Part shown: positions 1 to 60,406 of the stretch, piece after piece
How positions within the stretch are numbered: position 1 is the stretch's first letter
Layout: each line of letters starts with the position of its first letter
Assembly: GCF_003019035.1 (NCBI RefSeq)
Contig: NZ_CP027447.1
DNA from: Escherichia coli
Lineage (GTDB): Bacteria > Pseudomonadota > Gammaproteobacteria > Enterobacterales > Enterobacteriaceae
DNA: 64,000 nucleotides
Reading direction: 5' to 3' (one strand)
Made by a program: the position numbers and the translations under genes
The notes under the pieces: model-generated
Told to the model about the DNA's origin: nothing
Seen by the model: the letters and a program-made list of their open reading frames with translations, nothing else
Database searches by the model: none

Positions 1-518
<518 letters not shown>

Positions 519-610
519 CTAATCCTTTGAATTTACATAGTAAAAAAGATACTTTTCCTCATAGTGTGAGCTAATTTTATGTTTCGTTTGATGATCGGAC
601 CGGTCTCAAA

Positions 611-712
611 AACCGCAGGCACGTTGTATGCAAGAACGTGCTGTGGCTGGCTGGTGAACTTCCAATAGTGCGAATATTGAATGATTTCTATCTGTTATAG
701 ATTTTACCGTAT
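611..712. repeat. Conserved ~100-bp element, copy A (homologous to 5170-5268)
   Basis: About 75% identity to copy B. Hairpin CACGTT(620-625)/AACGTG(635-640) around loop GTATGCAAG; copy B has compensatory changes in the stem. Confidence 0.4.
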
Positions 713-947
713 TTCGGCATGAATGAAACTGAATATCCTCCCACCGATTCTCCATGACTTTACGCCACTGTCTCTAGGGCTGCTATGTGCCAGAGGCGGA
801 CGTTGTTAAAATAGAAAATATCCCAACCTTGTATGAGTCGTGCAATAATTTCGAACTTTATACAAAGCTTTGGTTGTAAAGGTGTATAACCACAAGTGAC
901 ATTAATCACATTTGTAAAGGCAAAATGCAACAAACTGAATTAGTTAA

Positions 948-1099
948 TTGCGTAAATTTGAAGTTATGTTAAGGTGGTGATGGTTTATGGGCAGATTTTG
1001 GGTCGCGTTTCGCGATCAGTGAAAAAAATGTCCGATAGGATTGCCTTTCAGGATCTCATGTTCCTCGCATTTCTTAAGGTTCTTGTCAAGTTTGCGTAA
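948..1099 (+). ncRNA. Candidate retron msr-msd non-coding RNA (speculative)
   Basis: Retron RTs normally have a cognate ncRNA just upstream. 948-961 (TTGCGTAAATTTGA) can pair with 1086-1099 (TCAAGTTTGCGTAA) over 14 bp including 3 G-U pairs, enclosing 124 nt and ending 35 nt before the RT start. No long msd-like hairpin was identified by eye. Confidence 0.2.
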
Positions 1100-1133
1100 G
1101 AGTGCCCATAAACCCTTTTAGAGGCGATCTAAA

Positions 1134-2969
1134 GTGAAACGACTACAATCATTAAAAGAAGCAAAAACAAAACCAGACTTGGCTAAGCTATTAGGAATCA
1201 AACCTTCAGCGTTAACATACTGCCTATATGTATTAAAACCTGAAAATCAATACACACAGTTTAAGATACCAAAAAAAAATGGCGGCGAACGGATAATAAG
1301 TGCACCTAACGGAATATTAAAGACGATACAGTCATCCTTATCAAGACTGCTTCTAGATTGCTTAGACGAAATAGTTTGCATTAAGTTTCCAGACTCAGAG
1401 TTAGCAAGGCAGAAAGCAAAAAACTCAAAAATATTAAAGTTAAAATGTTCCAACTCAGAAATCAAACAACCCTCACTGTCTCATGGATTTGAAAGAAAGC
1501 GTTCAATTATTACAAATGCAATGATGCACTTGGGGAAAAAATATGTTTTTAATATAGACTTGGATAATTTTTTCGGCAGTTTTAACTTTGGTAGAGTCCG
1601 AGGTTTTTTCATAAAAAATAGAAACTTTGCACTCGATCCGGAAATCGCAACTGTAATTGCTAAAATTGCGTGCTACAACAATGAACTACCCCAAGGCAGC
1701 CCATGCTCCCCAGTAATCACTAATCTAATCACTCACTCGTTAGACATTAAACTGGCAGCGATTGCATCAAGAAACTCATCCACTTTTACAAGATATGCTG
1801 ATGATATTACATTCTCTACGAGGAAGGGGGAGTTTCCTTCTGCTATAGCAAAAAATCAAAATGGTAAATATATCGTTAGTAAGAAAATTAGGGGCGAGAT
1901 AACTCGCTCAGGTTTTATAATTAATGATGGGAAGACAAGAAATCAGTATAAAGACTCGAGGCAAGATGTAACAGGCTTAGTGGTTAATAAAAAGCCAAAC
2001 ACGAAAAAAGAATATTGGAGGCTTGTGCGTGCGCAATGTGACCATTTATTTAAACATGGTGAGTTCTTAGAGGTGATTGACGGCAAGGAAATAAAGGGGA
2101 ATGTTAATACCCTTGCAGGCAAACTTAACTTCATAGACCAAGTTGACCACTATAATAGATTGCGTCAAGGCGAAAAATTAAATCCAAAATATCACTTAAA
2201 AAAAGATGCCAATAAAAATGGCCATGCCAAAAAAAGGCGTTACTTACATAGTTCTAGAGAAAAAACGTTTAGTGAGTTTCTCTTCTATCGTTTATTTTAT
2301 GGCAATGAATTACCAACAATTCTTACGGAAGGTAAAACTGACAATATTTATCTGAAGGCAGCAATACATAAGTTAGCCTCATCATTCCCTAATTTGGCGG
2401 TCGCTGAAAGTCCAGGGCTCTCTTATAAGCCACGGACTAAATTTGTTAACTACAATGAGCGGACAAAATATTTACTTGAACTTTATGGTGGTGCTGATTA
2501 TTTAAAGGATTTTGTTATTCATTATAAACAACACTTTAATCGTTATAAGGCTCCCAAACCATCTAATCCAGTAATTATACTTGTTGATAATGATAGCGGA
2601 CCAAAAGATCTGATTAATTACGTTAGTAAAGTTGATAATATTGGTATTTTCCCCACAGGTGTTCCAGATATCCGCGCCTCTGAGTTTGTACATATTTTTT
2701 GTAATCTTTATTTAGTGCTTACCCCTCAAGTTAAGGGATATACAGGAACTGATATAGAGCATTTTTTTAAAGATGCAGATCGACTTAGACCACATAAAGG
2801 TAAGTTTTTCAATACAGTCTCTAAGCGTGATCATGATAATGATTTGAGCAAGGAATCTTTCGCAACTCATATTGTTCATGCCCACAAGCATGAAATTGAT
2901 TTTAGTGGATTTACAAGCCTGTTAGAACGGTTAGTAAAAGTCATAAATCACTTTGACACTGTTAAGTAA
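1134..2969 (+). CDS. Retron-type reverse transcriptase fused to C-terminal TOPRIM-like domain (611 aa)
   Basis: GTG start with GAGG 9 nt upstream. RT motifs: KKNGGERIISAP (aa 47-58), NAxxH as ITNAMMH (aa 126-132), IDLDNFF (aa 141-147), LPQGSPCSP (aa 185-193), YADD (aa 221-224, nt 1794-1805), VTG (aa 280-282). C-terminus: ILTEGKTD (E399, nt 2328-2330) and ILVDNDSGP (D485/D487, nt 2586-2594), the Glu plus DxD pattern of TOPRIM. Visibly AT-rich relative to flanking core genes. Confidence 0.8.
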   Translation: MKRLQSLKEAKTKPDLAKLLGIKPSALTYCLYVLKPENQYTQFKIPKKNGGERIISAPNGILKTIQSSLSRLLLDCLDEIVCIKFPDSELARQKAKNSKILKLKCSNSEIKQPSLSHGFERKRSIITNAMMHLGKKYVFNIDLDNFFGSFNFGRVRGFFIKNRNFALDPEIATVIAKIACYNNELPQGSPCSPVITNLITHSLDIKLAAIASRNSSTFTRYADDITFSTRKGEFPSAIAKNQNGKYIVSKKIRGEITRSGFIINDGKTRNQYKDSRQDVTGLVVNKKPNTKKEYWRLVRAQCDHLFKHGEFLEVIDGKEIKGNVNTLAGKLNFIDQVDHYNRLRQGEKLNPKYHLKKDANKNGHAKKRRYLHSSREKTFSEFLFYRLFYGNELPTILTEGKTDNIYLKAAIHKLASSFPNLAVAESPGLSYKPRTKFVNYNERTKYLLELYGGADYLKDFVIHYKQHFNRYKAPKPSNPVIILVDNDSGPKDLINYVSKVDNIGIFPTGVPDIRASEFVHIFCNLYLVLTPQVKGYTGTDIEHFFKDADRLRPHKGKFFNTVSKRDHDNDLSKESFATHIVHAHKHEIDFSGFTSLLERLVKVINHFDTVK

Positions 2970-3197
2970 TATTATGATGCGCACTGATTATTCCTTATTC
3001 AGCTAAAATTTCTACTGTAGTCCCAACTTCCGTTCCTCGCTCATAACAGACATTCACTACAGTTATGGTAGAAGGTATGCATGCTGGGTGGGGAAAGTAT
3101 GAAGGAAAAGAAGACTGCTGCGCCGTTTGTTGTCACATTTATCTTCATTGGCTATGCAAGTCGTAATACAAGGTGGGACAAAACTGAGACACATAAG

Positions 3198-3230
3198 GCC
3201 TCGCAATGACTTGCAAGGCTTTACATGTTT
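3198..3230 (+). terminator. Possible intrinsic terminator downstream of the RT gene
   Basis: Imperfect hairpin GCCTCGCAA/TTGCAAGGC (3198-3219, loop TGAC) followed by a T-rich stretch. Confidence 0.25.
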
Positions 3231-3298
3231 TGATGTGGTGGGACGTGTGAGCGCAGTGTTGATGGGGTAATGCTTTGAATTAGAAGCGGATTCTTATA

Positions 3299-3344
3299 AT
3301 TCGTAATGCGAAGGTCGTAGGTTCGACTCCTATTATCGGCACCA
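3299..3344 (+). pseudogene. thrW: 3' fragment (46 nt) of tRNA-Thr(CGU) thrW; island att junction
   Basis: ATTCGTAATGCGAAGGTCGTAGGTTCGACTCCTATTATCGGCACCA matches the anticodon loop (CGT), T-arm and acceptor 3' strand with CCA of thrW as I recall it. The 5' half (GCCGATATAGCTCAG...) is absent, so this is not an intact tRNA gene. Confidence 0.7.
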
Positions 3345-3707
3345 TTTAAATCAATAAGTTATCTCACATTTAAGTAAACTACGTTCTCCTCTTGTGCCTT
3401 TGATTTTGCTCGCGTGCGCGGTGAAATGCCTGACTGAAAGGTGAGCATATCGACGAACCATTTCGAGAGTTTCCCATCTGCTCATTTTTAAGTGCAAGCA
3501 GGAAAACACCGGACTAAACCAATCAGCTGTTCGAAAATGGCAAGCGGATTAATATGCCATGGCGGGGCAGCTTTGAGCCGCACGCATGGGGTGTGGCAAG
3601 CCTGATGGATTTTGCTGTGCCTGTGGTGGCGTGTTTGCTGGTTTGGCTGTTGGTTAAACGCGAAAGTCATAATGCCAGGGGAATACCGCAGGGTGTTCAG
3701 GTTTTGC

Positions 3708-3734
3708 ATAAAAAAGCCCACCATTAAGGTGGGC
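3708..3734 (-). terminator. Intrinsic terminator active on the minus strand
   Basis: GCCCACC(3716-3722)-ATTAA-GGTGGGC(3728-3734) with A6 at 3710-3715, giving a U6 tail only on the minus-strand transcript. Confidence 0.45.
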
Positions 3735-3941
3735 AAAAGGAATGATTTATATTCTCTGAGAGAAACATTACATTTCTCCTTGTCACTTCTAACATAAAAA
3801 TATGGAGAAATAATGGAGCTTATATTAATTGGCGATTAGGTAACCATGTGGTTATACAAAACAATACAGTTCTTTACATTTGCCTTGTTTTATGAATACT
3901 CCTGAAGAGGTGTACAACATAATTAAACAAACAGGGTAAAT

Positions 3942-4556
3942 ATGAATATATTTGAACAAACTCCACCGAACCGCAGACGTTATGGTCTTGCTGCATTCAT
4001 TGGGCTGATTGCTGGCGTTGTTTCCGCATTTGTGAAGTGGGGGGCTGAAGTTCCATTGCCGCCACGTAGCCCGGTGGATATGTTTAATGCAGCGTGTGGT
4101 CCGGAATCATTAATCAGGGCTGCTGGGCAAATTGATTGCTCCCGTAATTTTCTCAATCCTCCGTATATTTTTCTTCGAGACTGGCTGGGGCTGACAGATC
4201 CCAATGCGGCTGTTTATACCTTTGCCGGGCATGTCTTTAACTGGGTTGGTGTTACGCACATTATCTTTTCGATAGTGTTTGCTGTCGGTTATTGTGTGGT
4301 CGCTGAAGTATTTCCAAAAATTAAACTCTGGCAGGGCTTACTGGCAGGTGCTTTAGCCCAACTTTTTGTTCATATGATTTCATTCCCTCTCATGGGACTG
4401 ACGCCACCTCTGTTTGATCTCCCGTGGTATGAGAATGTTTCTGAAATTTTTGGACATTTAGTCTGGTTCTGGTCCATTGAAATTATTCGCAGAGATTTAC
4501 GAAACAGAATTACTCATGAGCCAGACCCTGAGATCCCTTTAGGCTCAAACAGATAA
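3942..4556 (+). CDS. yagU: Inner membrane protein YagU (DUF1440)
   Basis: 204-aa [28 protein letters not shown]..., recognised as YagU; hydrophobic segments. Confidence 0.9.
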
Positions 4557-4570
4557 TGCATTGAATGATA

Positions 4571-4600
4571 AAAATGGCGCAAATACAGCGCCATTTTTAT
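4571..4600. terminator. Bidirectional intrinsic terminator between convergent yagU and ykgJ
   Basis: Stem ATGGCGC(4574-4580)/GCGCCAT(4588-4594), loop AAATACA, flanked by A-run upstream and T-run downstream. Confidence 0.5.
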
Positions 4601-4805
4601 AGGTTAAAAACATTGTTTTTAACTTTCTGATGGCAGATAGCCAGTGAGTACATCGCGCTACTTCAGGATGCTGTAGATCCGGAGAACACTATAGAGGAAG
4701 AGGCATTGTTGCTGGCAGATGGAAGAAGTTTCGGGTTTTGTTATCCCTGAAAAACGAAGCCCCGCGATTATAGCTGGCGGGGCAGTGCAATTAATTATTG
4801 CATAT

Positions 4806-5135
4806 TTATAACGGTGTCAGCCCGTATTTAGCTCTTGCACGATTGCAAGCCTCATTGACGACTCCGTTCTCACCAGACATGGCGAATTCTCTGCACGTGG
4901 AAGATCGATTTTTATATATCGTGCAGCAGGCATTTTTGCCCGGTGTTCCTGCAAGGGCAATACATCGGGGGTTTTTCTGATTGGTACCGCTCATGCATCG
5001 GTGAAAAGGGGATATTTGTTCAGTGAGCCTGGCGGGAATGGTACCGCCAGCATCGTCGGCTTCGGCCCAGTAAAAAGAGACGCGGAAAAATGCACAACAG
5101 GCACCACACGTCATGCATGGATTCAGATTGCTCAT
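4806..5135 (-). CDS. ykgJ: YkgJ, putative zinc/iron-chelating (ferredoxin-like) protein
   Basis: 109-aa [20 protein letters not shown]... with CxxCxxCC motif. Confidence 0.85.
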
Positions 5136-5169
5136 AATTCACCAGTACAGCTATAAATCGTAAAGAGAA

Positions 5170-5268
5170 CTGCGGTACGTCGTATGCAGGGACGTATCGC
5201 GGTTGGCTGGTGTACTTTCGATAGTGTGAGTATTGAATGATTTCCAGCCGTTACCGATTTTACGTCCT
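5170..5268. repeat. Conserved ~100-bp element, copy B (ykgJ-ecpE intergenic)
   Basis: Hairpin TACGTC(5176-5181)/GACGTA(5191-5196) around loop GTATGCAGG, followed by GGCTGGTG...ATAGTG.GA.TATTGAATGATTTC shared with copy A. Confidence 0.4.
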
Positions 5269-5447
5269 AATTAGTGAAGAAACCACTCGTTAGCAGGCCG
5301 CCTGGTACCTTTCCGTGTCTCCTGAACACTATGGTGTACATATGAGAAAGCTCATCGTTACAGGTGACATTGACGATCGCTTCCACATCATTTAAACGAT
5401 TTTTGAGTCTCTGAGGTGGAATTCTTCCCTCGTCCGATGGATAAGTC

Positions 5448-6158
5448 TTAGTCCGCCGAAGGGGGCTTAGCAGGACAGGAATCGCTAATCTTAATGAATT
5501 TGTCGTTATAGACCAGATAATGATTCCCCGGCTGACGTAACTCAGGCTGATGAACCACGTCTCCCGGACGTAGATACCAGGCGTCGCCTTCCTCTTCGGT
5601 CGAATCACATCCTGGTTTAATCAGTAGCTTAAACCACGTGTTGCCGGTGTTACTTACCGTTCCTGTCACCTGGTCGAAGGACCATTTAAACTGAACCTGA
5701 CGTGGTCGTACTACCAGAATGGTATCCATCACCACCACCGGCTCCGTGCTGACCTCACCGCCGGTTGGGCTGCGTTTTGTCAGGTTACGAGTGGGGACCT
5801 CGCGAAATGAGACCCGGTAGTAGCGCTCGCGGTTATCCCGTGGACCATGATAGTAAAATTTAAAATACTCGCTCTCACCAGCCTGCAACGCCAGCTGGCG
5901 GGGGGCGAAAAGCAGTTCACCATCCACCGGTCGGGTGCGCAATTCACTGCTGCCCGGGCTATCAATAGCACTGATGGCAATACGGTATATCCGTGCGCTT
6001 TTGTTGTTATTCACTACACGTTTGCTGACAAAGTCAGTCTCGGACGGCAGCGAAAATGTCAGATTGCCGACCGAAATCGCCTGTGTCAAAGGTGCCGACA
6101 GCATACAGACCGCTGTCAGCAGGGCCTTAGTTAATGTTACGCCACGTCGCCTGAACAT
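5448..6158 (-). CDS. ecpE: E. coli common pilus chaperone EcpE
   Basis: ORF 5448..6203; start set at internal MFRRRG to give the 236-aa length I recall for EcpE. Signal peptide present. Confidence 0.85.
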
Positions 6159-7770
6159 GAATTTCTCCTGAAGCGCTGACTTCGCCAAACCAGCCGTTAT
6201 CATCTACCGTACGCAGCGAAATGGCGTTATCCATTGGAATCGAAAATTTGACTGTGGTCTTATCCATCTGCCCCACTTCGCCAGAGATATCAGTCCACGG
6301 TGTAGTCAGCCACAGCGCATCGGTCATATCCCGCCAGCTATCATCGCACCCGGCATCGTAGGTTTTTGTAGCTCCGTTGCGGGTAATAAAGGAAAGCGTC
6401 GCCGGGAACGGTACTTTCGCCTTACCGTCATCGGAGCTGAGGACACAATAGGAGCGTCCGCCAATCACCTGCGCGGGTCCGGTCACCTTGATCAGCACTT
6501 CGTCGGCAGCTGTTTTACCGCTGGTGGTTACGATATAGCCGAAATCGAGTGCCGACTCGCCGCTGCCAACATATCCCTCCCGCGACGGTGTCTGAGTATA
6601 TTCATCGGAGATAATACTGATGCTGAAATCACGGGGTTTGATAATCAGCGTGTTGGAGGTAGAAAATTCATACCAGCCAGACTCCGGTGATGTGGTGTTC
6701 TGAAAGCGAAAGTTGAACAGATCTTTGGTGTTGATATCGCTGATCCCAAGGTTCACCATTTGCTTAAAGAAGTTGCTCGAGAAGAAAACATAGATCGAGT
6801 CTGCGCTCTTCATCTCGTTGAAGGTGTAGTAATAGGCGGTATTGCTCACCGGTTTCCATGAACTGCCATTCAGACTGAACTGCATATCGTACGCCCCGAC
6901 GGCCGAGGCTAACGACGAGTTGGCGATCGCCGGGAAGATATGGATTGAGGTGTTGCTGAGCCCGTTTGTTTGCAGGGTATAGTTAACCATCTTACAACTT
7001 AATCCTGAACGGCTGCCGATGGTTTGCGTCCGGCAGTCGGCGTTCCCTTCGCCCAGAGTCGGAACTCCGTCGCTGTTGATAAATACTTCCGCCAGCGAGT
7101 GGGTATTTATCAACCGCAGATTTGCTGCTTTCGTATGGGTGACGTTGCGAACATACCAGTTGCCGGAGGCCTGATCCTTACAGCGTGCGCCGCTGCTGGC
7201 ATCATAGTTCACAGAGGTCTGGCAGGCATTGATGGTCATTGTAAAGCTGCTGCCGACGGGCATTTGTTGCAGATACTGGTAAAACGCGTCTGACAACATG
7301 CCGTGCATCCACTTCGCGCCGCCGCTGGTCACCGTCGCGCCATAAAATCCACTGGCGTCGGTGGTTTGCGGCAGGATAAGACTGGTGGTCATATTACACC
7401 CAGCGTACCAGTTGATGCAGCGCAAGCCAGTTAAAGGAGATGAAACTGGTGAATTTTCCAGCCACATATCAAACTTCCAGTTGGTATAAAGGCCGGTGTT
7501 GTAACCGTTATCAATGTAGCCGAGGCTTTGCTGATAGATGGTTCCTGAACCATTGTATTTTAAACCGGTCCAGCGGTTGGCACCGGTCAGGCGCGGATCC
7601 AGCGCCCCGCCAGGAGTGACGAAAAAGTTGTCGTCTGAGTTGTTTTCGACAAACACAAACTCGCGTGCCGGAGCATCCGCCCAGGTTGTTTTGCTCACTG
7701 CCGCTCTGAGCGCGGTTGCAGGCCAGATTAGCGCAAAGATTATCATCGCTATCAGTAGGTTAACTCTCAT
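6127..7770 (-). CDS. ecpD: E. coli common pilus tip adhesin EcpD
   Basis: 547-aa ORF with signal peptide, in the ecp operon order. Confidence 0.9.
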
Positions 7771-10285
7771 TCTCTTCTCCTGTCTGCGTCACCGCCGCCC
7801 ACGATGAGAGGCCGCTGCAGACCACATCACCGACCCAGACTGCACCGCGCGCCTGATTGAGTTCCAGTGCCACTTCGCAGGTTTTATTGCCACTGTAGCG
7901 AAAATCGATAGTGGGGTATTTCTTATCCACGTCCATGACAAACTCGCCGTTTTCATCGGTTCGGGTTCGGCCGATATGGTTGTTAATCCGTGCGTTAGCC
8001 AGCAGTGTGCCGTCTTCCGCACGGATACGACCGGAGACGGTAACCATCTGCTTCACCTCTGGCTCAATGACAGCGACATTGCCTGGATAGAGAGTCAGAT
8101 GACTTTTGCGACCGCTGACGATATCGTAACTGTCGAGTGAGTTTTTGCTGTTCTGTAACTCCACCTCATATCTTCCATAGGGAGAGAGCGGGAGATAGTT
8201 ACGCTTGCCGTTAAGCGGGAAAATCCGTCCGTTGATTTTGGCGCTGATCTGACCGTCGTCCTCCAGCCCGGTGTTGAATATCACCCCAGCGTTGCCATCA
8301 GTCCGCCCGCTGGCAGCAATGTTTTTACCCTGCCAGCCGACGCTGCCATTGGCGGTCAAGTTGGTATTGACGTAGCCGTCCGCCGCGCTATTGACGTTCA
8401 GCGTTCCGCTGGCGTAACGAGCGTCGAACTGTGCATACGCCCCACCGCTGAGGGTTTTGTCATCACCGGTATCGCCGGAGATGGCTCGTGACAGATTGGC
8501 ACCAACAGTGCGAATGGTTCCTTCATCAAACTGTTTGCGTGCTGACAGGTTTGCCATGGTGTAGCCGTTTTGATGGGTCATCCCTGCGCTAAACCAGTTG
8601 CCCAGTGGTAGCGAGAGATCGAGAGCGATATATTTCCCTGTATTGGCGCTGCTGTCGCCGTTGTTATAGCGCTGAATACCGGCCCGCAGGCCAAGCGAAC
8701 CAAAGGTACCGCTGTAGACACTTTGATAGTAATCTGCCGTGTAATAATGGCTGTTGTAACGGCGGTCATCATTGTAGCTGATGCTGAATGTGCCCAGCTT
8801 CGACCACAGTGAGTTCAGGTTGAGTGTGCCGCCGATTGCACGGTTGTCGGCATCGCTACGTCGCAATTGATTGCCAATGCGGGTTTTTTCCTGGTTAACC
8901 CACAGCGAACTGAAGCCTCCAGGTAGAGTGGCGCTGATGCTGGCGATGTTGCTCCATGAGCTGTCACTGGCCAGCATGTTTTGCAGGTTAACGTTGATCG
9001 CCCCCCCAAGCGGCAGCGTCAGACGGGTTTCACCCACCGCCTGATTATCGTATCCATATCCCGTTGCCGCCCAGCTAAGCGTACTCAGTGAGCCGGAGGT
9101 CGAGGCACCTGCCAGCCAACTCTCTTTAGCTGGTCGCGTCTTTTTCCCGTTTTCCGACCAGCGATCCATATGAAAGCTACCGCCCCATATCTGCCACGCC
9201 AGTGGTGCACCGACGCCGCGCCCCCGGCTAAACAGCTTATTGACCCGTTGAGTGCGTTTGCTAATCACGCGACCGTTAACGATGACCTCAACTTCCACAT
9301 CGTAAATACCGTACGGTAGACCCCGGGTATCCACTTCATGATTGCCCATGGTGAAGTTCTGAACGCTTAGTAACCGCCCATCACGGGTGAGATGTACTTC
9401 GCCCGCCGCCGGTAAAAAGGCGATCACTGGCGTGGCTGACTGGCTGCTGTCGAAGATGGTGGAGCTGGCCTGGTTTCCCCAGGAAAGGCCGTAAATCTTC
9501 CCTGCTGAAATGGCGGTCATCGGCCCTAAGGACTGCAAGTTCCAGGTGTCGAGCATTCCACCGGCAAATCGGTGACCGGCAAAATCGCGTTCATACATCG
9601 CTTTATATAATTCACTGTCCTGTTGACCGCTACCGATCCCGTACAGCGAGCCGTCGAGCACCACATGATGTTCGCGCAGTGCAGTAACGTTATTCAGCGA
9701 CAGATAGCTGGATGTGTTGCTCCCGCCGTTACGCAACTGGTTGTTATAGACGCCGAAGTTATAGCTCAGATTACTGCTGAGGGTGTTAACACTGGACTGC
9801 CCGATGTCTTCGCTACGTGAGCGTAGTACAGTGCCCAGCGCTTCGCGCTTGACCACCAGCTGCAGCAGCAGTTGGCGCAAGCTGAGATCCAGCTGCGCGT
9901 TGTCAGTCAGGGGGATGGTAAGGGCCTCATTGAACGGGGCGTTCGCCAGAGCCATCAGCTGCTGTCGAGTTTGTTCGCTGACACTGGCGTTATCTTCACT
10001 CTCTTCCAGCTGTATTTTCCGGATGCGTAGCTGTCCATCATCCAACCAGATAAAAGCGCTGCCGATTCGCTGATCGTCCTGGCGACCCTGGCTACCGGCG
10101 AGATGAATATAAAGCGGGACGCTCATGCCGTCCTGGAGCGCCTGACTGAAGGCCTGCGGAATAATCACCCCACCTATTTGCTGCGCACTTATGTCAGCAG
10201 CGCTGGCATCGGGCTGAACGAACAAAAAGACCATGCCGAAGGCAAACTGGGCTTTCAGTCCTGGGGAGAACCGTCGTAAAGGCAT
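7760..10285 (-). CDS. ecpC: E. coli common pilus outer membrane usher EcpC
   Basis: 841-aa ORF, usher-sized, between ecpD and ecpB. Confidence 0.9.
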
Positions 10286-10310
10286 TGTCGTTATCCATCT
10301 GCACAGCTAT

Positions 10311-10979
10311 CTATTTCACGGGAATGAACTTATCACCCTGCCAAAGTGCAACCCGTCCTTTGTTATCCGCCGTGTCCACGCGGGTAAAACGACGCGACTT
10401 GCCCGGCATCAGGTAGTAATTCTCTTTACACTCTTTACCATTGGCGGCTTTCAGGCAGGGGCCGTAGGCGAGGATCCGCAGCGTCGCATTTCCTGTATTT
10501 GTCAGGGAGCCGTTGGCGTACTGAAAGTGGTAGTTTGCCTGGCGGGGTGCGACGACCAGAATGGTGCCGATGCGGGCGGAAGCAGTGGCCACAGCGCTGC
10601 GGTTGGCATTATCGCGCTGCGCATCACTGAGGGCCTGATCAAACCAGACAATGCGGTAGTAGCGCTCTTTTTCATCTGCGGGTCCCTTATAGAAGAAGCG
10701 GATCACTTCGCTGGCTTGGGCGGGTAGCAGCAAGCTAGCGGGAGTGAGTAGCAACTCATCCGGCTTGTCCATTGAGATAACCTGCCCGTCGTCAAGCGGT
10801 GAAGAGAGCCGTTCGAGACGGATATTGATGAGGCGACCACTGTCGGTACTGTTTTTGATCGTTTTGCTCAGCGTGCTGCTGTCACTGTTCATAAACGATG
10901 ATATATCGCCGACATCCAGCGCCTGGGCCGGAGATATTCCGGATAACAGCAAAGCGAGAGGCAGAAGGTGCTTTTTCAT
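10311..10979 (-). CDS. ecpB: E. coli common pilus chaperone EcpB
   Basis: 222-aa ORF with signal peptide [20 protein letters not shown]. Confidence 0.9.
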
Positions 10980-11036
10980 AACAATTCCGTCCAGGAATAA
11001 AGCAGGGGGGCTACCCCTGCTGGTACATCAGAGAGA

Positions 11037-11624
11037 TTAACTGGTCCAGGTCGCGTCGAACTGTACGCTAACGTCGCCGCTCCAGATGCCTTCCGGTAGA
11101 GTGCTGTAATCGGTTACTGCGGTGGTACCATTGGTGGTGCCGCTGATGATGGAGAAAGTGAAACCATCCTGTGCGGTGGTACGATTGCTGGCATTGTAAC
11201 CGTTAGCCAGCGGGCTAAGGTTGCCGCCCAGTACGCCGTTGGCGGTATCGATCATCACGGTATCGCCAGTTTTTTCGACTGCCGCGCCGTTATAATCCAC
11301 GCCCACATTCAGTGTGGAACCTGAGGTATCCAACTGGGTTAAGGTGTTGGTGATAAGACGTGAGGTCAGTTTAAAGGCGGTAGCCGTTGAGTCACCCTCG
11401 ATAGCCACGTCAAATAGACCTTTCTGTGAGTTAAAACCTTTAATGCCTTCGGCATACTGGAACGCCAGGCTACCGAGTGGCGTCACAACCAGCTTACTGG
11501 TGGTGTCTTTTTTGGCTGTTGCTGACCAGGTCGCTACAGCCTGAGCTGTTACGTCAGCAGCCTGCGCCACACCTGTACCGGTAAACACCGTTACCAGAGC
11601 TATTGCCAGAACCTTTTTTTTCAT
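11037..11624 (-). CDS. ecpA: E. coli common pilus major subunit EcpA (MatB)
   Basis: 195-aa [38 protein letters not shown]... recognised as EcpA. Confidence 0.9.
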
Positions 11625-11698
11625 TGCTTTTCTTCCCGAGTTGAATTGAGGACATGAAGTCCCGGTGAGTCATTTTTTAAAACTAACTTGCCTGGAGT

Positions 11699-12310
<612 letters not shown>

Positions 12311-39287: not shown

Positions 39288-41321
39288 ATGACAGACCTTT
39301 CACACAGCAGGGAAAAGGACAAAATCAATCCGGTGGTGTTTTACACTTCCGCCGGACTGATTTTGTTGTTTTCCCTGACAACGATCCTGTTTCGCGACTT
39401 CTCGGCCCTGTGGATTGACCGCACGCTGGACTGGGTTTCTAAAACCTTCGGTTGGTACTATCTGCTGGCGGCAACGCTCTATATTGTCTTTGTGGTCTGT
39501 ATCGCTTGTTCGCGTTTTGGTTCGGTGAAGCTCGGGCCAGAACAATCAAAACCGGAATTCAGTCTGCTGAGTTGGGCGGCGATGCTGTTTGCTGCCGGGA
39601 TCGGTATCGACCTGATGTTCTTCTCCGTAGCCGAACCGGTCACGCAGTATATGCAGCCGCCGGAAGGCGCGGGTCAGACGATTGAGGCCGCGCGTCAGGC
39701 GATGGTCTGGACGCTGTTTCACTACGGCTTAACCGGCTGGTCGATGTATGCGCTGATGGGCATGGCGCTCGGATACTTTAGCTATCGTTATAATTTGCCG
39801 CTCACCATCCGCTCAGCGCTGTACCCGATCTTCGGTAAACGGATTAACGGGCCGATAGGTCACTCAGTGGATATTGCAGCGGTGATCGGCACCATCTTCG
39901 GTATTGCCACTACGCTCGGTATTGGTGTGGTGCAGCTTAACTATGGCTTGAGCGTACTGTTTGATATTCCCGATTCAATGGCGGCGAAAGCGGCACTGAT
40001 CGCCTTGTCGGTGATCATCGCAACGATCTCTGTCACCTCCGGTGTCGATAAGGGCATTCGCGTGTTATCGGAACTTAACGTTGCGCTGGCGCTGGGGTTG
40101 ATCCTGTTTGTGCTGTTTATGGGCGACACCTCGTTCCTGCTTAATGCGCTGGTGCTGAACGTTGGCGACTATGTGAATCGCTTTATGGGCATGACGCTCA
40201 ACAGTTTTGCCTTCGACCGTCCGGTTGAGTGGATGAATAACTGGACGCTCTTCTTCTGGGCATGGTGGGTGGCATGGTCGCCGTTTGTCGGCCTGTTCCT
40301 GGCGCGTATCTCGCGTGGGCGTACCATTCGCCAGTTCGTGCTGGGCACGTTGATTATTCCGTTTACCTTCACGCTGTTATGGCTCTCGGTATTCGGCAAT
40401 AGCGCGCTGTATGAAATCATCCACGGCGGCGCGGCATTTGCCGAGGAAGCGATGGTCCATCCGGAGCGCGGCTTCTACAGCCTGCTGGCGCAATATCCGG
40501 CGTTTACCTTTAGCGCCTCCGTCGCCACCATTACTGGCCTGCTGTTTTATGTGACCTCGGCGGACTCCGGCGCGCTGGTGCTGGGGAATTTCACCTCGCA
40601 GCTTAAAGATATCAACAGCGACGCCCCCGGCTGGCTGCGCGTCTTCTGGTCGGTGGCGATTGGTCTGCTGACGCTTGGCATGCTGATGACCAACGGGATA
40701 TCCGCGCTGCAAAACACCACGGTAATCATGGGGCTGCCGTTCAGCTTTGTGATTTTCTTCGTGATGGCGGGGTTGTATAAATCTCTGAAGGTAGAAGATT
40801 ACCGCCGTGAAAGTGCCAACCGTGATACCGCGCCGCGACCGCTGGGGCTTCAGGATCGCCTGAGCTGGAAAAAACGTCTCTCGCGCCTGATGAATTATCC
40901 GGGCACGCGTTACACTAAACAGATGATGGAGACGGTCTGTTACCCGGCAATGGAAGAAGTGGCGCAGGAGCTGCGGTTGCGCGGCGCGTACGTGGAGCTA
41001 AAAAGCCTGCCGCCGGAAGAGGGACAACAGTTGGGGCATCTGGATTTGTTGGTGCATATGGGCGACGAGCAAAACTTTGTCTATCAGATTTGGCCGCAGC
41101 AATATTCGGTGCCGGGCTTTACCTACCGCGCACGTAGCGGTAAATCGACCTACTACCGGCTGGAAACCTTCCTGTTAGAAGGCAGCCAGGGCAACGACCT
41201 GATGGACTACAGCAAAGAGCAGGTGATCACCGATATTCTCGACCAGTACGAGCGGCACCTTAACTTTATCCATCTCCATCGTGAAGCGCCGGGCCATAGC
41301 GTGATGTTCCCGGACGCGTGA
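39288..41321 (+). CDS. betT: Choline transporter BetT (BCCT family)
   Basis: 677-aa multi-pass membrane ORF divergent from betIBA. Confidence 0.9.
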   Translation: MTDLSHSREKDKINPVVFYTSAGLILLFSLTTILFRDFSALWIDRTLDWVSKTFGWYYLLAATLYIVFVVCIACSRFGSVKLGPEQSKPEFSLLSWAAMLFAAGIGIDLMFFSVAEPVTQYMQPPEGAGQTIEAARQAMVWTLFHYGLTGWSMYALMGMALGYFSYRYNLPLTIRSALYPIFGKRINGPIGHSVDIAAVIGTIFGIATTLGIGVVQLNYGLSVLFDIPDSMAAKAALIALSVIIATISVTSGVDKGIRVLSELNVALALGLILFVLFMGDTSFLLNALVLNVGDYVNRFMGMTLNSFAFDRPVEWMNNWTLFFWAWWVAWSPFVGLFLARISRGRTIRQFVLGTLIIPFTFTLLWLSVFGNSALYEIIHGGAAFAEEAMVHPERGFYSLLAQYPAFTFSASVATITGLLFYVTSADSGALVLGNFTSQLKDINSDAPGWLRVFWSVAIGLLTLGMLMTNGISALQNTTVIMGLPFSFVIFFVMAGLYKSLKVEDYRRESANRDTAPRPLGLQDRLSWKKRLSRLMNYPGTRYTKQMMETVCYPAMEEVAQELRLRGAYVELKSLPPEEGQQLGHLDLLVHMGDEQNFVYQIWPQQYSVPGFTYRARSGKSTYYRLETFLLEGSQGNDLMDYSKEQVITDILDQYERHLNFIHLHREAPGHSVMFPDA

Positions 41322-49592: not shown

Positions 49593-49766
49593 GCCGGATG
49601 CGGCGTGAACGCCTTATCCGGCCTACGGATGGCGCAAGAATCTGTAGGCCTGATAAGCGTAGCGCATCAGGCATTTGTCACCATTGCCGGTTGCGGCGTG
49701 AACGCCTTATCCGGCCTACGAGTGGCGCAAGAATTTGTAGGCCTGATAAGCGTAGCGCATCAGGCA
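49593..49766. repeat. Tandem REP/BIME elements between yahG and yahI
   Basis: Two near-identical ~80-bp units (49593-49672, 49687-49766), each an inverted pair of REP-like sequences (GCCGGATGCGGCGTGAACGCCTTATCCGGCCTAC ... GTAGGCCTGATAAGCGTAGCGCATCAGGC). Confidence 0.8.
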
Positions 49767-59747: not shown

Positions 59748-60160
59748 TTCAGAAAGGGTTCCACCTGCGAGTTGTTATTCCACCAGAGAGTGAATCGCAA
59801 AGCAGGTGATCATTTCATCTGTATATCCGTATGCCAAATGGCATTCCACCGCCTTTTTCGCCGATATTTTGTTGTGATCGGCGACGCTTCGCTTAAAAAA
59901 GCATCAGCAGTGGTTTCGCAGCTATACGGTGTATAAAAAAATGATCTCATGCAGATGTTTTGTGAATGTGTGGGTTGACATTCATATGAAAAAAATCATA
60001 ATTCCATCATGTTTGTGTGGGGGCTTTTCTGTATCTTACGCATCGCACTCAAGCCTGACAGAAAATATGCTGTAAGGCTCATATCAAAAACCGCCATTAG
60101 CTCATCAGGAAGAGCAGACGACAACCAGGATTGTTGTATGGTACGGGGTTCGAGGCCTCG

Positions 60161-60406
60161 ATGGCGGTCCAACTTTTCATAACTCTTCTGAATCAGATCC
60201 CCTTATTATCATCCCTGCAAAGTGAAACATTGCCATTGTTTGGCTATTCAGGACGGGTCAGAGCAATGAAAAAAGCCCACACAGGGGAGAGTGGGCTGAA
60301 ATGGGAAGCTAAAGACTCAAGTAAACTTATCGGAAATAAGGACCACGCATTACGGGGGCTATCATCGCCGATGGTCGGGATCCGGCAAATCAGGTTGATT
60401 ACGTAG
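60161..60406 (+). CDS. yahM: Small protein YahM
   Basis: ORF 60131..60406; start set at the internal Met to give 81 aa. Confidence 0.5.
   Translation: MAVQLFITLLNQIPLLSSLQSETLPLFGYSGRVRAMKKAHTGESGLKWEAKDSSKLIGNKDHALRGLSSPMVGIRQIRLIT

Follow-up and report, generated by a model that had tools for sequence, protein, structure and literature searches.

The window analysed here, a 64,000-nt stretch of Escherichia coli DNA, contains 46 nucleotides at positions 3299-3344 (plus strand) that read as the 3′ end of a tRNA gene. This raises the question of what the fragment is, and how it came to stand between the DNA on its left and the chromosomal genes on its right. A first-pass annotation had proposed that it is a 3′ fragment of thrW lacking its 5′ half, and that it is the repeat left by an integrase at the right edge of a foreign element. 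Comparison with phages, with K-12 and with other E. coli genomes supports a more specific answer with high confidence. The fragment is very probably the attR core of an SfI/SfV/e14-type lambdoid prophage integrated in thrW via a P22-type tyrosine integrase. The window starts inside this prophage, and just the last 3.3 kb of the element lie within its left edge.

The fragment itself is exact. Window positions 3299-3344 (ATTCGTAATGCGAAGGTCGTAGGTTCGACTCCTATTATCGGCACCA) are identical at 46 of 46 positions to bases 31-76 of K-12 thrW. The match begins with the last base of the 5′ strand of the anticodon stem and continues through the anticodon loop (CGT), the variable region, the T arm and the 3′ strand of the acceptor stem to the CCA end. 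The 5′ 30 nt of thrW were not found in the window with up to three mismatches, ARAGORN calls no tRNA at 3299-3344, and Rfam returned no match of any kind in window positions 1-4000 at E≤1. The complete cloverleaf by which tRNA finders recognize a functional tRNA-Thr is therefore missing at 3299-3344, as the proposal of a fragment without its 5′ half had anticipated. The 46-mer is not a chance match, a possibility raised in the first-pass annotation: it occurs once in the window when up to three mismatches are allowed and in none of 100 shuffles. The repeat is exactly 46 bp long because the last base before the fragment, at 3298, is an A that differs from C30 of thrW.

The same 46 bases have been printed for phage SfI as the sequence common to attP, attL and attR, and this 46-bp core is described as identical in SfII, SfV, SfX and P22 (PMC3636060). 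All five phages integrate into thrW, beside proA, and thrW is among the tRNA integration sites used most often in E. coli (PMC7545054). The GenBank record of SfI carries an 'attP core' feature that aligned with window 3299-3344. The sequence at the junction is thus both the 46-bp attP/attB core and the 3′ end of thrW.

The DNA directly 5′ of the core is that of a phage attachment site. The 125 bp at 3174-3298 (plus strand) form a P arm 96-98% identical to the attP arm of SfI and SfII, and arm and core together (3174-3344) match the attP regions of SfI, SfII and SfIV at 96.5-97.7% identity. In the SfII GenBank record, attP is annotated inside the stretch aligned to 3174-3344. A P arm homologous to an experimentally defined attP therefore abuts the core, as expected of an attR. 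The hexamer TGGGAC lies at 3020, 3174 and 3239, the last two within the P arm, and occurs only six times in the 64-kb window compared with about 23 expected from shuffles. A tandem pair of the same motif is found in the P′ arm of the prophage of strain 20, an intact relative discussed below. From their sequence and placement, these motifs are probable arm-type Int sites.

The P arm belongs to a longer segment (3029-3298, plus strand) that appears as the conserved right end of thrW-integrating prophages and at which their variable cargo ends. Of 5426 complete E. coli genomes, 1018 contain at least 80% of 3029-3298. In genomes with other cargo, such as LR-62-2, the match to the window begins at 3029-3039. 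A part of this DNA just outside the SfI-like P arm, at 3037-3233, shares about 90% identity with a segment found in phage 21 and many lambda-like phages, which indicates mosaic exchange next to attP.

The most familiar occupant of this locus is CP4-6 of K-12. There, the order is thrW, the 34-kb CP4-6, a further copy of the thrW 3′ end (called ptwF in phage records), yagP-paoDCBA and yagU, so that CP4-6 and then the pao genes precede yagU, as the first-pass annotation had correctly stated. This invites a reading in which 3299-3344 is the second thrW 3′-end copy of a CP4-6-like cryptic island with a P4-family intF, which acquired the retron and the GIY-YIG gene at 1-3298 later, inside the island. 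The two loci share the tRNA gene, the chromosomal hot spot and a duplicated thrW 3′ end at the right boundary. In addition, about 54 bp following the CCA in the window are homologous (89%) to the K-12 right flank. The repeat of K-12, however, is 49 bp long (CGC plus the 46), rather than 46 bp as in the window. CP4-6 is a P4-like cryptic island with its integrase, intF, at its right end, and yagP-paoDCBA follows it, whereas the lineage of the window lacks yagP-paoDCBA. None of the marks of a CP4-6-type right end, namely the 49-bp repeat, intF before it and yagP-pao after it, is found here, and no P4-type integrase is adjacent to the core. Alignment rejects the CP4-6 reading, since the DNA to the left of the K-12 repeat (the intF upstream region) is unrelated to window 3200-3298. 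The left arm in the window matches instead the attP of SfI and SfII and the ends of SfV-like prophages. A CP4-6-like origin is thus very improbable.

The position at which phage DNA gives way to chromosome was mapped with two relatives. Window positions 1-3398 match E. coli EC7 at 99.6%, with one difference in 1-3298, none in the core and 19 mismatches in the next 56 bp. Strain SCU-301 (NZ_CP051751.1) gives the reverse pattern. Over 58,702 bases compared, it has no mismatch to the window at 3299-12000 and a single one over 14001-64000, located at position 40370, and left of 3299 its identity falls to the random level (24 of 100 positions). The SCU-301 site consists of proA, an intact thrW, a 155-bp integrase pseudogene and yagU, with no prophage. 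The B′ DNA 3′ of the core is therefore identical to the DNA that follows an intact thrW in an unoccupied site. Because the left side matches EC7 and the right side SCU-301, the change from phage to chromosome is placed within the 46-bp core, which is where site-specific recombination would put it. Core, attP arm and empty-site flank all agree with an integrase-made repeat of a tRNA 3′ end that bounds a foreign element on the right, and the island-free strain that the first-pass annotation had sought for comparison is provided by SCU-301. One difference in 58,702 bases further implies that the prophage was gained or lost very recently. The strain of the window and SCU-301 form a near-isogenic pair of lysogen and non-lysogen. 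Their near-identity also lends indirect support to a predicted Int/Xis-dependent excision, which would regenerate attP and attB.

The junction had to be reconstructed from two separate relatives, since no complete genome has the exact combination. The retron cargo joined to the flank without pao occurs in none of 5426 complete E. coli genomes, none of which covers at least 80% of window 1-6000. Likewise, the pao-less flank is not found among 10 loci encoding an identical RT protein (23 of 435 listed index blocks covered). Could the junction then be a chance match, or an assembly chimera in which the end of a prophage contig was joined to a chromosomal contig via a short repeat? Each side is near-identical to a different strain, the exact junction is absent from all 5426 complete genomes, and a shared repeat of 46-63 bp can in principle mislead short-read assemblers. 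Against this stand the 46/46 match, for which the shuffle expectation is 0, and the order of P arm, core and chromosomal flank, which is the attR structure predicted by site-specific integration. Moreover, the unit of P arm and core is joined to many flanks in independent assemblies, including complete genomes, and strain 20 has the pao-less flank joined to the same P arm. It is highly unlikely that either chance or misassembly produced the junction.

Strain 20 also indicates which half of the tRNA gene ended up on which side. It carries a 42-kb prophage with the layout of EC7, an intact thrW and integrase beside proA, and the same kind of pao-less right flank as the window. The core at its attR (L003 46139-46185) differs from the canonical sequence in having T50G together with A64C, two changes that compensate each other within the T stem, and a G following the CCA, whereas the copy at attL, inside thrW, is canonical. 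At least four other genomes (H136-H139) carry the same variant, at 100% identity, within a complete thrW that is annotated as tRNA-Thr. With the variant at attR and the canonical sequence at attL, the resident 3′ half was displaced to attR while the phage copy completed the tRNA. Since the variant of strain 20 lies entirely at attR, strand exchange would take place on the 5′ side of core position 20, at or close to the anticodon loop, a placement inferred from the strain 20 alleles. If the resident half goes to attR, the 46-mer in the window derives mostly from the thrW 3′ end that the chromosome had at the outset. Two thrW 3′ halves are thus in circulation, probably spread by phage-borne copies.

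These comparisons fit a simple scheme of integration. The terminal 46 nt of thrW would be duplicated in the phage attP. With the probable help of IHF, Int would exchange strands near the 5′ end of the common core, at or close to the anticodon loop. The phage-borne 3′ half would then complete the tRNA at attL, beside int. The resident 3′ half would remain at attR without a 5′ half, joined on its left to the P arm (3174-3298) and to the last genes of the phage. Those genes would be accessory cargo, namely a GIY-YIG nuclease of the PD-T4-3 family and an RT-Toprim retron of type I-C. The right side would be the pre-existing chromosome of a lineage without yagP-paoDCBA, in which the decayed integrase stub of an earlier occupant already lay directly after thrW. 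Binding of Int and IHF at attR is predicted from the motifs described here.

The right flank shows that the site was not a plain stretch of chromosome before this prophage entered it. The 17 bp after the CCA (3345-3361, plus strand) are shared with the P′ arm of intact prophages, and 3299-3361 is 100% identical to attL of strain 20. This short stretch contains both a match to the IHF consensus and the stop codon of an integrase remnant. The sequence AATCAATAAGTTA at 3349-3361 fits the consensus WATCAANNNNTTR and is a plausible IHF site at the motif level. Immediately beyond, 3359-3513 (minus strand) holds the remaining 3′ part, frameshifted, of an older tyrosine integrase gene of the thrW type. 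An integrase pseudogene is annotated by PGAP at the equivalent position in SCU-301, strain 20 and LR-62-2. The translation of 3359-3513 keeps the sequence ...EMVRRYAHL..., as in the intact integrase of strain 20, and its DNA is about 75% identical to the int 3′ ends of the thrW-type phages HK75, mEpX2, SfX and HK542. The remnant is a fossil of an earlier occupant and was already present in the unoccupied site. A second, degenerate copy of the core, such as would mark the right end of this older element, was not found between 3345 and yagU with up to three mismatches.

Homology to K-12 stops at 3398 and restarts at 3781 (K-12 locus L005, 36808 and 42331). The 382 bp between them (3399-3780) form a lineage-specific segment in place of the 5.5-kb yagP-paoDCBA of K-12. 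Of the 5426 complete E. coli genomes, 175 cover 3345-3800 to 80% or more. Rightwards of the junction, intact chromosomal genes begin with yagU (3942-4556, plus strand), identified by the Pfam domain DUF1440 and annotated as yagU in all compared genomes. It starts 597 bp after the fragment. The spacing of about 600 bp given in the first-pass annotation is thus accurate, but the interval is not plain chromosome, as it holds the integrase remnant at 3359-3513 and the 382 bp that replace yagP-pao.

Further to the right, Rfam at gathering score detects IS009 at 4562-4763 (191.7 bits), between yagU and ykgJ, and naRNA4 at 49647-49716 (72.1 bits). ARAGORN calls a tRNA-Ser(gga) at 60091-60171, between yahM and yahL. 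The PGAP annotation of the near-identical SCU-301 sequence has no tRNA at this place, nor does Rfam report one at gathering score. This call is probably a false positive.

The element to which the left side belongs can be seen whole in relatives. In EC7, the DNA matching the window forms the right-hand end of a prophage some 40 kb long, with an intact thrW beside proA and a convergent tyrosine integrase at the other end. The absence of an intact thrW or an integrase from the far end, which the first-pass annotation named as refuting its proposal, is thus not seen in the closest relatives, EC7 and strain 20. The order in EC7 is thrW, int, early genes, lysis genes, terminase, an HK97-type head, a Mu-like contractile tail, tail fibres, pinE, the GIY-YIG gene, the RT gene and the core. 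In both the EC7 and strain 20 prophages (about 40-42 kb), a xis-like gene follows int. Judged by gene content and order, this architecture is SfV/SfI/e14-like.

The identical RT protein is encoded in at least 10 further assemblies (23 of 435 listed index blocks covered). In 10 of 10 loci with this protein, the core lies at a constant distance from the RT gene, and the end of the P arm is the same or nearly the same, with one base differing in L020. These loci have at least five different right flanks, some of which lead into further integrated elements. In L012 and L014, tandem elements that include P4-type integrase, AlpA and Zorya genes follow the core. Across L012-L021, the identical RT cassette with its near-invariant P-arm end and core stands behind at least three tail modules (Mu-like, other contractile, and lambda J/Lom), and the upstream partner of the cassette is either a GIY-YIG gene or a GmrSD-type gene.

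Not every relative is whole. The prophages of L014 and L019 are internally deleted, so that a truncated terminase abuts the GIY-YIG gene. In JX21CE8 (L010 9029-10046), the RT gene is bordered immediately by an IS1, with betA next to it. This strain seems to have lost the attR core together with the entire yagU-ecp-ykg region, through an IS1-associated deletion that reaches betA. The element in the window may have been reduced to a remnant in the manner of L014 and L019. The junction would then be real, while the DNA on its left would be a decayed prophage or a short, cargo-only stub, a fossil without present function. The large internal deletions that place terminase next to GIY-YIG, the loss of attR in JX21CE8 and the presence of one integrase fossil already at the site are all compatible with such decay. 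The degree of identity to relatives argues in the other direction: one difference in 58.7 kb to SCU-301 and one in 3.3 kb to the full-length prophage of EC7 point to a gain or loss so recent that no time was left for decay. The P arm is also intact relative to the functional attP of SfI and SfII. Decay to a remnant is therefore rather unlikely, though less so than the CP4-6 and misassembly readings, and the attR of an SfI/SfV/e14-type prophage remains the preferred account.

The genes at the end of this prophage (1-3298) differ in composition from the chromosome beyond. The GC content is 33-42% across positions 1-3250, compared with 52-57% for most of the chromosome from about 5.5 kb on. The description of 1-3298 as AT-rich, foreign DNA was accurate, and this DNA matches the prophage end of EC7 with one difference. 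The leftmost gene (1-422, minus strand) encodes a GIY-YIG nuclease (PADLOC PD-T4-3, E 1.4e-77; Pfam LEM-3_GIY-YIG). It is cut by the start of the window, which leaves its 5′ part with the N-terminal 140 codons. In EC7, a full GIY-YIG gene of 257 aa occupies the equivalent place, directly after pinE and the tail-fibre genes.

The second gene (1134-2969, plus strand) encodes a 611-aa fusion of a retron reverse transcriptase with a Toprim domain, type I-C of the Ec67 family. The PADLOC model RT-Toprim_I-C is matched over its full length (E 4.8e-222), together with Pfam RVT_1. The EC7 gene at the aligned coordinates is named 'retron Ec67 family RNA-directed DNA polymerase/endonuclease' in RefSeq. 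Upstream of it, a perfect 12-nt inverted repeat (GGTTTATGGGCA at 982-993 and TGCCCATAAACC at 1103-1114) spans 133 nt and ends 20 bp before the RT start. The enclosed region (982-1114, plus strand) is a probable msr-msd, the non-coding part of the retron, to judge from a layout that is as expected for one. No Rfam retron RNA family matched 982-1114 in the search of 1-4000 at E≤1. This retron is present in 18 of the 5426 complete E. coli genomes.

Both PD-T4-3 and RT-Toprim I-C are families listed as anti-phage defence systems. The GIY-YIG gene and the retron are phage cargo, with a putative defence role that follows from this family listing. The RT-TOPRIM and GIY-YIG genes reported for the site are both present. 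They do not, however, make up a generic island, since the DNA that holds them is just the last 3.3 kb of an SfI/SfV/e14-type prophage.

The cargo sits in a slot between the tail-fibre/pin genes and attP, and other phages and lysogens fill the same slot differently. SfI and SfII carry gtrABC there. The slot holds ImmA, HTH and BRO-N genes in LR-62-2, two hypothetical genes in strain 20, and a cytosine methyltransferase with a type II endonuclease in ECE313.

How does this site compare with known systems? The lambda attR (P-O-B′) is the established paradigm of tyrosine-integrase site-specific recombination. As in lambda, a long phage arm with repeated arm-type motifs lies on one side of a short core. 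In both, int is transcribed towards attP and so comes to lie at attL in the prophage, and a site fitting the IHF consensus flanks the core. The lambda core, however, is 15 bp long and intergenic, whereas the core here covers 46 bp of a tRNA gene, and the tRNA is regenerated by the phage copy.

The closest likeness is to the attR of the Shigella flexneri serotype-converting phages SfI, SfII, SfIV, SfV and SfX and of Salmonella phage P22. These share with the window the 46-bp core and the gene order of tail fibres, accessory genes, attP, int and xis. The likeness extends to the attP region in SfI, SfII and SfIV, with the identity over 3174-3344 given above, and to the SfV/e14-like myovirus backbone in the closest relatives of the window. 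The Shigella phages differ in their accessory slot, which holds gtrABC rather than the GIY-YIG (PD-T4-3) gene and type I-C retron found here. They differ also in their host, S. flexneri, and in their right flank, which is yaiC, used as the right-hand PCR anchor (PMC3636060), in contrast to the integrase remnant and yagU of the E. coli window.

An attR at thrW is already known biology of an ordinary kind. The finding is of little importance alone, being a correctly read case of tRNA-targeted prophage integration at a well-known E. coli hot spot. Its value lies partly in annotation. It fixes the right boundary of the prophage at 3344, assigns the retron and the GIY-YIG gene to a phage rather than to the chromosome, and supplies SCU-301 as a near-isogenic, prophage-free comparator. 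The comparison of strains also offers a clean natural illustration of a resident tRNA 3′ half moved to attR while a phage copy completes the tRNA.

A modestly new angle is confined to the interchangeable cargo slot next to attP. Prophage-borne defence hot spots are known, for example the variable accessory loci of P2-like and P4-like elements. The slot described here resembles them in its fixed position in the backbone and in cargo that is interchangeable among lysogens: a retron with PD-T4-3, GmrSD with a retron, a methyltransferase with a type II restriction enzyme, or ImmA/HTH/BRO-N genes. It differs from them in adjoining the attP of thrW-integrating lambdoid phages. No paper was found in open-access text that names this attP-side locus a defence hot spot. 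Tentatively, the slot from pin and the tail fibres to attP may be a general, swappable hot spot that moves between unrelated phage backbones in company with the P arm and core, a proposal that stands somewhat short of an even chance. If true, phages that integrate at thrW would form a major vehicle, as yet unnamed, by which genes for O-antigen conversion are traded for genes of anti-phage defence.
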